Of a stretch of 64,000 nt of DNA, positions 11,830-59,823 are shown piece after piece. Position 1 is the first letter of the stretch. Every line of letters begins with the position of its first letter. Source of the DNA: Promethearchaeota archaeon. GTDB lineage: Archaea > Asgardarchaeota > Thorarchaeia > Thorarchaeales > Thorarchaeaceae. The notes beneath the pieces were generated by a model. That model had not been told where the DNA came from, ran no database searches, and saw nothing but the letters and a program-made list of their open reading frames with translations. The position numbers and the translations under genes are program-made. The stretch covers positions 32,001-96,000 of the forward strand of contig WJMJ01000046.1 of assembly GCA_014728035.1 (NCBI GenBank), given 5' to 3'.

Positions 11830-11969
11830 TGGTGGGCCGGCCCGGATTTTCACACATTCTGTAATTCAGATTAGGCTTTGAACCGGGGATCCCGTGGATC
11901 TCTGCGGTTCGGGTATGATACCAAAACCATCCCAAACCACGAATCATAGCCAAGCTAGACCACCGACCC
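11830..11969 (-). tRNA. tRNA-Pro(TGG) with two introns: 37/38 (11899-11930, 32 nt) and 59/60 (11847-11876, 30 nt)
   Basis: Full cloverleaf after removing both inserts; BHB central helices TTTG/CAGA and TTCA/TGAA with 3-nt bulges; CCA encoded. Confidence 0.93.
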
Positions 11970-12054
11970 ATGATGTTAGATGACTGGAAGGCAGAACAGC
12001 CAATCAGACACGTATCGGTTTTTCCCCGTCAAAGCGTTATAAGACTAGCGCTAT

Positions 12055-14400
12055 TTACACGGAAATATCTACAATATGAGGCGCTCCATCATCTGAAAAA
12101 CGAATCTGAACTTTATTGTCTAGGATCTTGGTGTCGAGTAGAGAATTATCAAGTCTTACCGCAGCTGGTTCTTTATCCAGGCCACGGATTTCTAAAACGA
12201 TATCTCTTGGGGGAGGAGCCCAATCGCCCATATGCTTAGAGAATTCGATATGTAATCCAGAGTCATCATGTCGAAGTGAGATGTCCATAAACAAAATGGC
12301 ACCAGTTTCTGAAAGCCCATCATCTTCAAAATAGCAGAAGTCAGAATCATGCCCAGGATATACAACCACAATGAGATCTCCTTGATTTTGGTTGGTATGC
12401 TGAATCGATCTGCCAGTTGGCAAGATAGTTCCACCACGGGAATAAATGGGAATATTATCAAGAGATGAACTCACAGAAATGGTAGAGCCACCTTCATCAA
12501 TGACCAACTTCTTCGAAGTCCAAAAGTCATACCAAACACCTTCAGGAAGATATACTAAAATTGTATCAACATCGGGTTCTAAGACTGGAGCAATTAGAAT
12601 GAATGGACCTAACATGAACTGACGATCTAATTCATAGGTATTCGAATCATCTTGAAATTCAAAGACAAGTGGACGCATAATTGGTATACCCGACTTACTT
12701 GATTCATATGCAAGAGAATACAGATAACGGAGCAATTCATACCTTAATTCCAGATACCGTCGAGCTTGGTGAAGCACACAGTCATCGAACAACCACGGCT
12801 CTTGTCGCCGAGTGTTAATCATTGAATGATTTCTTGAAAAGGGATAGAATGCCCCCAATTGATACCAACGTGCAAGTAATTCATCAGAAACATCACCGCC
12901 AAAACCGCCTATGTCTGCCCCACAGAATGGAATGCCTGATAAACCAAGGTTCAGAAGCATAGGGATAGACAACCAAAGATGTTCCCATTTTGATTGATTG
13001 TCTCCTGTCCACATAGCAGAATATCGTTGATATCCAGCATAACCAGAACGAGTCAAAAGGAACGGTCTTTGATTGGGATACGCTGCACGTAGTCCATTGA
13101 AAGCAGCTTGAATCATACCCATAGCATATGCATTCCGCATTCGGGGCTCCCACGGTTCTCCTTTTTCATCAACCACATCATCTAGTGAATATTCTTCTTT
13201 CATCCCTTGGTAAATACAATAGCTTGGTTCGTTCATATCTAACCAGCTACTATTACTCAGACCAGAAGCTGCTAATTTCTGGTATTGTTTGGAGAACCAA
13301 TCTCTAACTTGTTTTTTAGAGAAGTCTGGAAAAACAGTTTCACCAGGCCATACAAGACCAACATATACATCTCCATCAGACCGCTTTAGGAAATAATCAT
13401 TTTTGATTCCCTCATCATAGAGGTCGAATCCGTCTTCAAGCTTAACACCAGGATCAATAATGCTCATTACTCTGAAATCCAGACTTGCTAGTTTATCTGT
13501 AAAGTCATCGGGATTTGGAAATACATTTGAATTCCATGTGAAGATTCTAAATTCATCCATATATCCAATATCAAGGACAATAGTATCACAAGGAATCTTG
13601 TACTCACGCATGCCGTGCGCTATCGATAGAATATCTTCTTCGCTTTTGTATTCCATCCAACGAGAGTGTTGGTGTCCAAGAGCCCATCGCGGAACAAAAT
13701 GAGGGCGTCCGGTCAATCGAGTATACCTATCAACAACTAAACGAATAGATGGGCCTAGAATGAAGTAAATATCTATAGGACCATTAGGTGCACCGAAATA
13801 ATACAATGACGGATCAGTCTTTCCAAAATCAAAGAAAGAGCGATAGGTATTATCTAGAAAAACACCAAAAGAACTGCTATCAAGCAAAGTTATGAAAAAC
13901 GGGATTGATTGATAGAGAGGATCAGAATCAATATCATGTGATGGATTATCCGTATTCCACATCTCATACCGAAGACCTCGTTTATTCAGACCATGCGCTT
14001 TTTCTCCCATACCGTAAAAGCACTCACTACCAAGCAGTTTTGCTGAGAATTCAAACCTTGTACCTGACATTTTCAAAGGATTAGAACAGGATTTGAAAAC
14101 GACAGAGCCTTGGGAATCCATCAATCGAATTGCGAAGGGATTAGATTGGATCGCAAAGGCATAATTTTCAAAATTGATTTCCCAAATGTCATTAGTCTTT
14201 TTCAGATGTGCTTGTTGTATCGGAGGATCGTGCGGTACCGCCACTGAAGGATACTCGCGATAGTATTCAGTAAAAGTAGCTTGAAATCGAATAATTCCCT
14301 CACTGATAGGTTGTATGATGAAACGCCCATTTTCACATTTAAATTCATGACCAGTTTCACTTGAAGAAACAGTACTAACATGTCCGAGATTATAAGACAT
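12055..14400 (-). CDS. GH31 alpha-glucosidase family glycoside hydrolase
   Basis: WLDMNEP nucleophile motif, WTGDN, GADIGGF and FSRNH. Confidence 0.95.
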   Translation of the reverse strand: MSYNLGHVSTVSSSETGHEFKCENGRFIIQPISEGIIRFQATFTEYYREYPSVAVPHDPPIQQAHLKKTNDIWEINFENYAFAIQSNPFAIRLMDSQGSVVFKSCSNPLKMSGTRFEFSAKLLGSECFYGMGEKAHGLNKRGLRYEMWNTDNPSHDIDSDPLYQSIPFFITLLDSSSFGVFLDNTYRSFFDFGKTDPSLYYFGAPNGPIDIYFILGPSIRLVVDRYTRLTGRPHFVPRWALGHQHSRWMEYKSEEDILSIAHGMREYKIPCDTIVLDIGYMDEFRIFTWNSNVFPNPDDFTDKLASLDFRVMSIIDPGVKLEDGFDLYDEGIKNDYFLKRSDGDVYVGLVWPGETVFPDFSKKQVRDWFSKQYQKLAASGLSNSSWLDMNEPSYCIYQGMKEEYSLDDVVDEKGEPWEPRMRNAYAMGMIQAAFNGLRAAYPNQRPFLLTRSGYAGYQRYSAMWTGDNQSKWEHLWLSIPMLLNLGLSGIPFCGADIGGFGGDVSDELLARWYQLGAFYPFSRNHSMINTRRQEPWLFDDCVLHQARRYLELRYELLRYLYSLAYESSKSGIPIMRPLVFEFQDDSNTYELDRQFMLGPFILIAPVLEPDVDTILVYLPEGVWYDFWTSKKLVIDEGGSTISVSSSLDNIPIYSRGGTILPTGRSIQHTNQNQGDLIVVVYPGHDSDFCYFEDDGLSETGAILFMDISLRHDDSGLHIEFSKHMGDWAPPPRDIVLEIRGLDKEPAAVRLDNSLLDTKILDNKVQIRFSDDGAPHIVDISV

Positions 14401-14496
14401 TTTCACACACGTGAAGGACTCCACATGCACCTTTTGTTACTTTTGTAAGATAGAGATTGCGAAAGTTTCTTTTCTTCTTGCGAGAAACTATTCATA

Positions 14497-14733
14497 GTGA
14501 TTGTAATGAGTCTACTTGGCCCAGATGATTTCGACCTTGATAAAAAAGAAAGAAAGAAAAAACTAGCAAAAGATCTTTCACCAAAAATGCAAAAACATAT
14601 TGATAAATGGATAGATGAGATGGATGAACAAGAGCTTGTAGAAAGTGTTACAGAGCTTCTTGGCTCACGAGAGAGAGCTATTGCTGCTATACGAAAAAGA
14701 AAGATGCGACATGAAAAGAAAGATATTCATTAA
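14497..14733 (+). CDS. Small hypothetical protein
   Basis: 78-aa charged ORF filling an intergenic gap. Confidence 0.6.
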   Translation: MIVMSLLGPDDFDLDKKERKKKLAKDLSPKMQKHIDKWIDEMDEQELVESVTELLGSRERAIAAIRKRKMRHEKKDIH

Positions 14734-14764
14734 TTTCAAACTGCAATAAGAGGGATAGCAAACC

Positions 14765-15133
14765 ATGTCAGATAGCCCGTTTGAACTTGAGATTGAACTA
14801 GCTAAGGAATCCAAAGACCTGAAAACAACTTTAGCAATCATTAGGACCATAGAGGCAGAAAAGCGAACCCATCTTGCAGAACTAAGAACGGGAATCGGTA
14901 TCATGACTATTCCCCTATCACTCCTTACTATTCTGATTGCAACTTCAAACTATTACAATGTATATGATGTACTAGGTTTTGTCGTAGCATTGGTAATTGG
15001 AATCGTCACCTTGTTTGTCATTGGTGGAACATTAGTTCGACGTGCATTTCGTAGAATAAAGAATAGTGAGTTGCACCGAGATAAGGCATGCCTAACTACA
15101 TCCTATATGGTCGAGGAGTATTTCGCAGTCTAA
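14765..15133 (+). CDS. Small two-TM membrane protein (DUF202-like)
   Basis: EKRTHLAELRTG motif followed by two hydrophobic helices. Confidence 0.65.
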   Translation: MSDSPFELEIELAKESKDLKTTLAIIRTIEAEKRTHLAELRTGIGIMTIPLSLLTILIATSNYYNVYDVLGFVVALVIGIVTLFVIGGTLVRRAFRRIKNSELHRDKACLTTSYMVEEYFAV

Positions 15134-58787: not shown

Positions 58788-59087
58788 GTGATGCCAATGA
58801 AAATAGACATCCTTCAGGAACGAGAAAATAAACCCCTTGCAAGGAAAGAAATTGACTTTGCAGTTGAGCATCTAGGAGGCACCACTCCAAGCAGAGCTGA
58901 TGTCAAATCAAAGCTTGTAGCAAAGTACGATGCTGATTCTGAAACTGTTGTGGTTAAGAAGATGATTACCCACTTTGGTTCTGGAATGACCAAAGGACAG
59001 GCACGTATCTATACTAGCAAGGACCAGATGGAACGAATCGAACTCGACTATGTCAAAAAGAGACACATCGTTAAGGAGAAGAAATAG
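58788..59087 (+). CDS. rps24e: 30S ribosomal protein eS24
   Basis: N.PLARKEI, TPSR and FG...G.ARIY motifs. Confidence 0.95.
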   Translation: MMPMKIDILQERENKPLARKEIDFAVEHLGGTTPSRADVKSKLVAKYDADSETVVVKKMITHFGSGMTKGQARIYTSKDQMERIELDYVKKRHIVKEKK

Positions 59088-59246
59088 ATGGCACATAAAC
59101 TTTACAAAGTAGATAAAAAGTCTGGAAAAGTCACCTCTGAACGCAGACCTTGTCCTAGATGTGAAAAAGGAACCTATATGGCTGAGCACTTCGACCGTTA
59201 TGCTTGTGGTCGTTGCGGATACACAGAGTTCAAGCGTAAAAAATAA
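59088..59246 (+). CDS. rps27ae: 30S ribosomal protein eS31/S27ae (52 aa; not in ORF track)
   Basis: CPRC...[17 protein letters not shown]; starts immediately after the eS24 stop. Confidence 0.96.
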
Positions 59247-59300
59247 CCAACACGCACGATTATTGTTATATCTATTCTTCACAGTAGAGATAAGGTCTTA

Positions 59301-59600
59301 TCATTCTCCTACTATGGCCATAACCCATCTGACAAAAAACAGTATACCAATAACAACTGTAAGAAGTATGTCAATTTGAAAAACCCCAGGAAGAACAACC
59401 TCTGCCGATGCTGCTAGCATTAGAGCAAAAGGAAAAGTCACTATGAATGGCAATGTAGCTATAGTCAAAGACACTTCTTCACTTGCTACCATAGAATATA
59501 CTAAGGATAAAATCCATATCGCATAAATTGCGACTAGTACAGCTAACTCGAAAATCATCAGACTTCCTTCTATCTTTATTCTGTACCGTTCCCTTTTCAA
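59301..59600 (-). CDS. Small three-TM membrane protein
   Basis: Three hydrophobic segments; GGAGG upstream. Confidence 0.65.
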   Translation of the reverse strand: MKRERYRIKIEGSLMIFELAVLVAIYAIWILSLVYSMVASEEVSLTIATLPFIVTFPFALMLAASAEVVLPGVFQIDILLTVVIGILFFVRWVMAIVGE

Positions 59601-59714
59601 GTCCTCCTTTTGTCATTTTCATCGCTCACAACATCTCAGCTCATTACCTCATTGAAATAGCAACGACCCAACAAAAACCCTTAAAACTCCATGAAAGGCT
59701 TTCATAGTAAGCAT

Positions 59715-59823
59715 AGCGGGTTGGGGAAGCCAGGCCTATCCCGCAGGGCTCATAACCCTGAGACCGGTTGTTCGTCGTGTCTTGACTTCCAAGGTGCGGA
59801 CAAAAATCAACCACCCGCTACCA
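59715..59823 (+). tRNA. Initiator tRNA-Met(CAT) with T-loop intron at 57/58 (59775-59804, 30 nt)
   Basis: A1-U72 pair, GGG/CCC anticodon stem, CT-CAT-AA loop; BHB helix TGTT/GACA plus a 9-bp outer helix; CCA encoded. Confidence 0.94.

Follow-up and report, generated by a model that had tools for sequence, protein, structure and literature searches.

The closest described counterparts of the elements reported here are the noncanonical tRNA introns of Thermoproteales and other archaea (reviewed in PMC4090602; see also Marck and Grosjean 2003 and Sugahara 2008). These introns are built on a bulge-helix-bulge (BHB) splice motif, favor the D-loop, position 53/54, and the T-loop, can occur several to a gene, and depend on a broad-specificity (αβ)2 form of the splicing endonuclease EndA. 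We analyzed a 64,000-nucleotide (nt) stretch of a Thorarchaeia genome, hereafter the window (Promethearchaeota archaeon, GenBank assembly GCA_014728035.1, contig WJMJ01000046.1, positions 32,001 to 96,000 of the forward strand), in which three tRNA genes, for Pro, Trp, and initiator Met (iMet), hold four noncanonical introns of exactly 30 nt. The source is a 4.3-Mb metagenome-assembled genome (MAG) with a G+C content of ~40%. Its introns have the motif, the hot spots, and the multiplicity of the described ones, and probably also their enzyme dependence. Archaeal tRNA introns have medians of 12 to 25 nt per isodecoder and range from 11 to 129 nt (PMC4090602). Against this norm, a sharp mode at 30 nt and a conserved apical loop set the present introns apart.

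In Thermoproteales, a "large-scale intron transposition" has been described (Fujishima 2010, as summarized in PMC4033280 and PMC4090602). The BHB requirement limits the possible sites there, as it does here, and whole introns are at least 70 to 80% identical across tRNA types. In contrast, no introns in different tRNA types of this genome reach that identity, and only a short signature and a few 10- to 14-mers are shared. Uniform length, not sequence identity, is the striking common trait here. Intron-rich tRNA genes have also been published from the same phylum (PMC11291895; preprint 10.64898/2026.10.13.758758). As far as the accessible parts of these sources go, those Asgard genomes resemble ours in having many noncanonical or multiple introns, two EndA paralogs, and repeated gains with no obvious arrival route. 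However, the burden is lower here (~0.8 introns per gene), and the sizes differ: medians are given as 22 to 23 nt in other Asgard lineages (preprint 10.64898/2026.10.13.758758), and a published table, read by hand, lists introns of 13 to 69 nt for Atabeyarchaeia-1, with 0 of 47 at 30 nt. The accessible text of the two Asgard sources reports no Thorarchaeota tRNA introns, 30-nt rule, or conserved intron loop. As far as the searchable literature shows, the 30-nt regularity of Thorarchaeota is unpublished.

A preliminary description of the window, made from the sequence alone, had proposed four 30-nt inserts with one architecture. We found them where it had placed them (Table 1), both by reading the sequence and with a solver that is blind to length. 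Each insert is 30 nt long and ends in AA. The four nucleotides before the last two pair with an exon 4-mer ending 2 nt upstream of the 5' splice site, and the cut falls after the second base of the bulge. This central helix has four of four pairs in every case, Watson-Crick throughout in TGAA/TTCA, CTAG/CTAG, and CACG/CGTG and three Watson-Crick pairs plus one G-U in GACA/TGTT. All four have the inner hairpin, and the length of the outer helix is 5 bp in the Pro intron, 3 in iMet, 1 in the Trp D-loop, and 0 at Trp 53/54, and the two Trp introns are therefore relaxed BHB forms. The canonical 37/38 introns of the window also have the lengths (32, 27, 27, and 58 nt) and ends (GA, TC, TA, and AT) that had been described for them.

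Excising the four inserts together with the canonical introns restored cloverleafs with full stems and with T and anticodon loops of 7 nt. ARAGORN called the excised products tRNAs, the cloverleaf solver gave them full stems and loops, and the predicted mature Trp and Pro sequences are those of intron-less orthologs. Judged from these restored cloverleafs, the four inserts are genuine, protein-spliced BHB tRNA introns at noncanonical positions. Most of the single architecture that had been claimed comes from the BHB. Seven of the 30 nt are set by the BHB motif, namely, the last of three bases in the 5' bulge, the 4-nt strand, and two bases in the 3' bulge; the layout of one base, hairpin, four bases, and two bases is thus BHB geometry. 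However, the 23-nt hairpin and the final AA go beyond the motif, and the uniform hairpin is a property of the lineage. Plain ARAGORN found one tRNA in the window, and Rfam, at gathering, E-value, and relaxed thresholds, found three, all of them single-intron or intron-less. Standard finders overlooked Pro, Trp, and iMet, three of the eight tRNA genes in the window, a point of practical weight.

The genome encodes two EndA paralogs (PF01974), an alpha-like protein of 188 amino acids and a beta-like protein of 200. The nearest EndA relatives, 82% and 67% identical, come from MAGs of Candidatus Thorarchaeota and support the taxonomic placement of the genome. The alpha-like protein aligns over residues 17 to 186 of the 186-residue catalytic chain in the A. 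pernix heterotetramer and appears by eye to keep the Tyr, His, and Lys, whereas the beta-like protein appears, also by eye, to be without the catalytic His. Typing of EndA, as proposed in advance, thus gave one probably catalytic and one His-less paralog, a pair that is consistent with an (αβ)2 endonuclease. Enzymes of this type with an L1 loop, which widens the substrate range, have been surveyed in Asgard archaea, and EndA holds a bulge adenosine stacked between two recognition residues (PMC5829648). RtcB is encoded in the genome as well, and the host thus possesses both an endonuclease and a ligase for splicing. The gene for the alpha-like paralog is on contig C151, and that for the beta-like paralog (C51:13394-13996; C numbers denote contigs) lies ~1.3 kb upstream of an intron-bearing tRNA-Arg(CCT) gene (C51:15308-15403).

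We then took a census of the whole genome (G000). All BHB candidates of 11 to 140 nt were cut out in a SPLITS-like scan, with an ARAGORN tRNA call across the junction, and a solver combined BHB candidates with a cloverleaf score and allowed a free canonical intron. Neither step has a preferred length, and BHB-like candidates across the genome form a flat length background with no peak at 30 nt. The census covers 46 archaeal tRNA genes and sets aside two intron-poor arrays. Twenty-eight of the 46 are interrupted, by 37 introns, 20 noncanonical and 17 canonical. The noncanonical introns measure 26, 26, 28, 29, 29, 30 (13 introns), 32, and 32 nt, and the canonical ones 14, 22, 27, 27, 29, 30 (four introns), 31, 31, 32 (three introns), 34, 58, and 62 nt. 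Of the 20 noncanonical introns, 12 have a final AA and 13 a first A. The probability of 13 or more of 20 at 30 nt is 4e-6, given the 30-nt frequency among canonical introns of the family. Broad lengths and random ends genome-wide had been named beforehand as the mark of coincidence; the census shows a concentration at 30 nt instead.

The two arrays set aside are dense and nearly intron-free, with 5 and 19 genes (C161:38326-39366 and C26:11286-25121), and they are probably viral or foreign. A tRNA-Asp gene in the first has a 29-nt T-loop BHB intron. The only isoacceptor that was not found in the genome-wide census is tRNA-Leu(CAA). At C17:9289-9338, on the minus strand, there is a tRNA T-arm with a 3' acceptor strand and no recognizable 5' half nearby; it may be a heavily interrupted or split tRNA gene, perhaps that for Leu(CAA). 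ARAGORN also reported a tRNA-Sec gene with a UCA anticodon at C151:74129-74219.

The same solver was applied to two samples from the family, namely, the Trp, iMet, and Pro genes of ~30 relatives and 60 more intron-bearing tRNA genes from five relatives, found with a tRNA covariance model. Among 77 noncanonical introns, 36 are 30 nt long, 11 are 29 nt, seven are 31 nt, and seven are 32 nt, and the rest lie within 19 to 36 nt; 54 of the 77 fall at 29 to 31 nt. For most of them the site is the T-loop, position 53/54, or the D-loop. The 89 canonical introns have the same mode, with 16 at 30 nt, 13 at 31 nt, and 12 at 32 nt (41 of 89 at 30 to 32 nt), and a second length class of 58 to 65 nt in Trp and Met. 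When orthologs were collapsed, the median was 30 nt in 18 of 39 noncanonical site groups and in 8 of 25 canonical groups, and it was 29 to 31 nt in 28 of the 39. The first bulge position is A in ~75% of both sets. Exactly 30 nt is commoner in the noncanonical set (36/77 versus 16/89; Fisher p ~1e-4), and so is a final AA (40/77 versus 25/89; p = 0.002), with both tests counting kin as if they were independent. Therefore, the length and the final AA are nonrandom, as had been proposed. The 30-nt standard is real, family-wide, and common to canonical introns, and the noncanonical introns are only more tightly centered on it. Outside the family, five other Asgard genomes were searched with the covariance model; four gave broad spans, and in the fifth (G032) the spans cluster at 101 to 104 nt, equivalent to introns of ~28 to 31 nt.

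Some boundaries leave a choice of register. Introns in the D-loop and the variable arm have nested alternatives that differ by ±2 nt and fit the cloverleaf equally well. The Leu(CAG) variable-arm intron was kept at 32 nt, its BHB register, and would be 30 nt if the variable arm were 14 nt. The Met gene, with introns of 62 and 30 nt, was curated by hand, and in an alternative register its 44/45 intron measures 28 nt and leaves a 7-nt variable loop. The limits of T-loop introns are set by the 7-nt loop, and those of the Trp D-loop intron by intron-less orthologs.

Orthologous introns hold the length while their stems change. The Trp D-loop intron is found in eight genomes from at least six genera and is 30 nt long in seven and 31 nt in one. 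Of the 9 pairs in its hairpin, 8 have undergone compensatory double changes; paired cells make up 93%, compared with 34 to 40% when the partners were slid. The canonical intron of the same Trp genes ranges from 58 to 62 nt, so that indels, where tolerated, do arise over such a span of evolution. Between this genome and a congener (G001), the iMet and Trp exons are identical, and the iMet and Trp 53/54 hairpins differ at ~11 of 30 positions in a hand alignment; both introns remain 30 nt. The iMet 57/58 orthologs of G001 (30 nt) and G013 (29 nt) keep the apex motif. These comparisons show stems evolving by compensation at constant length. Not every intron is so constant, and the orthologous Gly(CCC) 53/54 intron is 30, 29, 21, and 19 nt long in four genera, with others at 26 to 36 nt. 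Two other genera carry a homolog of the Pro 59/60 intron in the same place, with 19 of 30 positions alike in a hand count, and the intron is absent from G001 (locus L112, G001:C2:541708-544804). Because the two genera that carry it are the more distant ones, its absence from G001 looks like a precise loss between close relatives.

The preliminary description had called the four introns unrelated in sequence, which is correct for overall identity only. In an in-register alignment of the 30-nt noncanonical introns, with the same weight for each of 20 site groups, a consensus emerged at the apex (G10 0.62, A11 0.80, Y12, T13 0.88, T14 0.59, C15 0.62, and C16 0.55) and at the ends (A1 0.53, A29 0.80, and A30 0.67). 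A weight matrix built from relatives alone, with the 4-bp helix and no fewer than 7 of 9 stem pairs as further requirements, gave 15 matches of at least 8 bits in this genome and 1 in the reversed genome; among the top matches are three introns of the window, those of iMet, the Trp D-loop, and Pro. Words of at least 10 nt common to introns of different tRNA types number 14, compared with 1.9 in structure-preserving shuffles. The in-register loop, the matrix recovery, and the excess of words all indicate a relatedness across sites that goes beyond structure. The apical motif occurs in only a minority of introns: GAYTTCC is present in 11 noncanonical introns at seven or more nonorthologous sites, eight of them, by hand count, in T-loops, and in no canonical intron. 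Hairpins with a GAYTTCC loop number 10 across the genome, compared with 3 to 13 for control motifs; the motif is therefore not a dispersed repeat.

The best match across sites is a 14-mer common to the Met 44/45 and Lys(CTT) 58/59 introns of this genome. A 14-mer match on contig C10 was considered as a donor copy and rejected, since it has no hairpin. The tRNA-Phe and tRNA-Val(CAC) genes (C25:214852-214954 and C25:244555-244658) have identical T-arm flanks, and each has a 30-nt 59/60 intron; their apices agree at ~10 of 15 positions, which makes the two genes candidates for gene conversion as a route of intron spread. Several matrix matches outside tRNAs run antisense to long open reading frames and are probably false, and four noncoding matches matched no Rfam family. 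Two cassette-like hairpins of 30 nt (G000:C5:4281-4310, plus strand, and G000:C77:54863-54892, minus strand) lie outside any tRNA or Rfam family, each followed within 35 to 70 nt by the same 19-nt C-rich motif ending in CCA.

A similarly built insert interrupts an mRNA. Outside the window, a 31-nt insert (G000:C25:322-352) lies between two reading frames of rpoA' (Rpo1N). It begins with A and ends in AA, and between these come a 24-nt hairpin and a 4-nt strand complementary to the exon. The Pfam profile of Rpb1 domain 1 runs on across it, since the upstream frame stops at profile position 261 and the downstream frame restarts at 264. The intron design is therefore not specific to tRNA. A genome-wide frame-restoration scan for mRNA introns was noisy and had no length peak; the rpoA' case was examined further and confirmed. 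A tRNA-type intron is reportedly also present in a protein-coding gene of Crenarchaeota, as the BHB intron of the cbf5 pre-mRNA. That is another gene in another lineage, whereas the rpoA' insert has a size similar to, and the same ends as, the tRNA introns of its own genome. Together, the results above establish a 30-nt hairpin with a common apex and A-rich bulge positions as a lineage-wide standard, common to canonical introns, noncanonical introns, and at least one mRNA intron.

How did this standard arise? We suggest that the short introns, canonical and noncanonical, are BHB mini-introns of a single related family that arose at ~30 nt and has kept this size through selection for an intact stem; our confidence in this proposal is evenly balanced. 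In such an intron, the exon 4-mer ending 2 nt ahead of the 5' cut would pair with intron bases 25 to 28, and intron bases 2 to 24 would form a hairpin of ~9 bp with a 5-nt loop, stacked on the 4-bp helix. The two 3-nt bulges (xx/N and AA/x, with the slash at the cut) would be cleaved, probably by the (αβ)2 EndA, and RtcB would then ligate the exons and free the 30-nt intron. The first A, the apical G-A-Y-U-U-C-C loop, and the final AA would be the shared marks of the family. Introns of ~30 nt would probably be copied between sites of like exon context, especially T-loops. Length would stay constant within orthologous groups because an indel in the stem would be deleterious and would need a second indel as repair, and drift would mostly remove or add a single base of the loop (29 or 31 nt). 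The final A's may reflect stacking of the enzyme on the bulge adenosine together with an advantage of unpaired bulge bases. Given the same size at ~40 independent sites and the shared signature, common descent of the cassettes is the simplest explanation.

Several observations weigh against this proposal. Identity across sites is low apart from the one 14-mer pair, and a short-word BLAST search with every intron found no second or donor copy of any of them in the genome. The copying step is thus inferred from a weak signature rather than directly seen, and the lack of donors and the weak identity call for caution about a family. The loop consensus could equally be the product of convergent selection, and the rpoA' insert is without the apex motif. 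The central 4-bp helix lies outside the minimum-energy fold of the T-loop introns. The family counts are not independent, because the relatives are kin that were chosen through covariance-model hits and the orthologs of three genes. In other Asgard classes, the recent preprint describes almost no intron families that cross tRNA types (10.64898/2026.10.13.758758).

The main rival to common descent is that the splicing machinery acts as a ruler. EndA, or a protein that binds G-A-Y-U-U-C-C about one helical turn from the bulges, would favor a 23-nt hairpin, and independent introns would converge on it. This would account for old orthologous introns that hold 30 nt with stems almost wholly replaced by compensatory changes, for the iMet and Trp 53/54 hairpins that diverged between congeners at constant length, for the loop consensus in register, for the missing donor copies, and for the similar size in rpoA'. 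However, the loop motif is in a minority of introns, and the Gly(CCC) 53/54 orthologs of 30, 29, 21, and 19 nt, like other introns of 26 to 36 nt, are presumably still spliced. The Gly(CCC) lengths contradict both a strict ruler and a selection of 30-nt circles, which the preliminary description had offered as possible causes. Moreover, we know of no EndA-RNA contact that reaches 9 bp from the bulges. We therefore consider a ruler possible but rather unlikely. A related proposal sets the noncanonical 30-nt cassettes apart as a class that a dedicated insertion mechanism of fixed length would produce or that would be selected as 30-nt circles; it draws on their excess of exact 30-nt lengths and of final AA. 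In fact, the canonical introns match them in mode and in the frequency of A at the first bulge position, and no target-site duplications or insertion footprints were seen by eye at the four sites. The canonical introns thus speak directly against the separate class of the preliminary description, and we regard this proposal as improbable.

A role in defense of tRNA genes, in which T- and D-arm introns break integrase attachment sites or other targets of mobile elements, has been published (Randau and Söll, as cited in PMC4090602), and the concentration of noncanonical introns in the T-loop, at 53/54, and in the D-loop agrees with it. However, defense leaves the fixed length unexplained, and the same design recurs in variable regions, anticodon loops, and the rpoA' mRNA. 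Disruption of attB sites, which had been raised for the T-arm introns, is therefore not the general reason for a design that is also found in D-loops, variable regions, and an mRNA, and defense is an unlikely explanation overall. Finally, the four equal lengths might be a coincidence or an artifact of how the boundaries were drawn, for which the ±2-nt ambiguity of D-loop and variable-arm registers could be cited. With the T-loop and Trp D-loop boundaries fixed, a flat BHB background, and the genome-wide and family-wide census against it, this idea is refuted and has hardly any probability left.

Table 1. Intron-bearing tRNA genes and their introns in the window, followed by two genes elsewhere in the genome
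Feature	Position	Strand	Remarks
tRNA-Pro(TGG) gene, two introns, encoded CCA	11830..11969	-	Spliced form has anticodon TGG and full stems
Pro 59/60 noncanonical intron, 30 nt	11847..11876	-	TTCA/TGAA central helix; T-stem is the outer helix; 3' end AA
Pro(TGG) canonical 37/38 intron, 32 nt	11899..11930	-	Strict BHB, outer helix 6 bp
tRNA-Thr(GGT) canonical intron, 27 nt	15229..15255	-	For comparison
tRNA-Ser(TGA) canonical intron, 27 nt	31716..31742	+	For comparison; ARAGORN wrongly labels the gene as Ala
tRNA-Trp(CCA) gene, three introns, encoded CCA	40573..40767	+	Mature sequence set by orthologs from 19 relatives, with and without introns
Trp D-loop 17/18 noncanonical intron, 30 nt	40590..40619	+	CTAG/CTAG central helix; 3' end AA
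Trp canonical 37/38 intron, 58 nt	40641..40698	+	Longer, different class; contains GGGGTCA
Trp 53/54 noncanonical intron, 30 nt	40715..40744	+	CGTG/CACG central helix; 3' end AA; also 30 nt in G001, with roughly half the hairpin changed
Initiator tRNA-Met gene, encoded CCA	59715..59823	+	
iMet 57/58 noncanonical intron, 30 nt	59775..59804	+	TGTT/GACA central helix; apex GACTTCC; 3' end AA
Met and Leu(TAA) genes with ATCT..ATGAA/GGGGTCA introns	G000:C9:213116-213147; C9:218563-218732		

Two further observations concern the neighborhood and the longer introns. A 5S rRNA gene (window positions 41798 to 41917) lies ~1 kb 3' of the three-intron tRNA-Trp gene. Throughout the family, the long canonical introns of Trp and Met (58 to 65 nt) and the Leu(TAA) introns (32 to 34 nt) have in common a 5' ATCT..ATGAA and an internal GGGGTCA. 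By sequence, these introns make up another family, separate from the first.

The newest Asgard census (10.64898/2026.10.13.758758) explicitly calls the arrival of archaeal tRNA-type introns at new sites an open question. The Thorarchaeota introns offer a sharp size standard, a loop signature, and frequent site-specific gains, together with a precise loss between congeners. They are therefore a tractable system in which copying of introns as units can be set against shaping by the splicing machinery. The design is also found within an essential mRNA, and the question thus bears on how protein-spliced introns can spread through transcriptomes in relatives of the eukaryotic ancestor. A bolder version, which we put forward tentatively and with more doubt than belief, is that Thorarchaeota harbor self-propagating 30-nt BHB mini-introns, with a fixed hairpin and a conserved loop, that colonize tRNA, rRNA, and protein-coding genes. 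Either the insertion machinery would then set their size, or a factor would do so by recognizing the loop at a constant distance from the splice sites. If this were true, the closest prokaryotic relatives of eukaryotes would carry a protein-spliced mobile intron.

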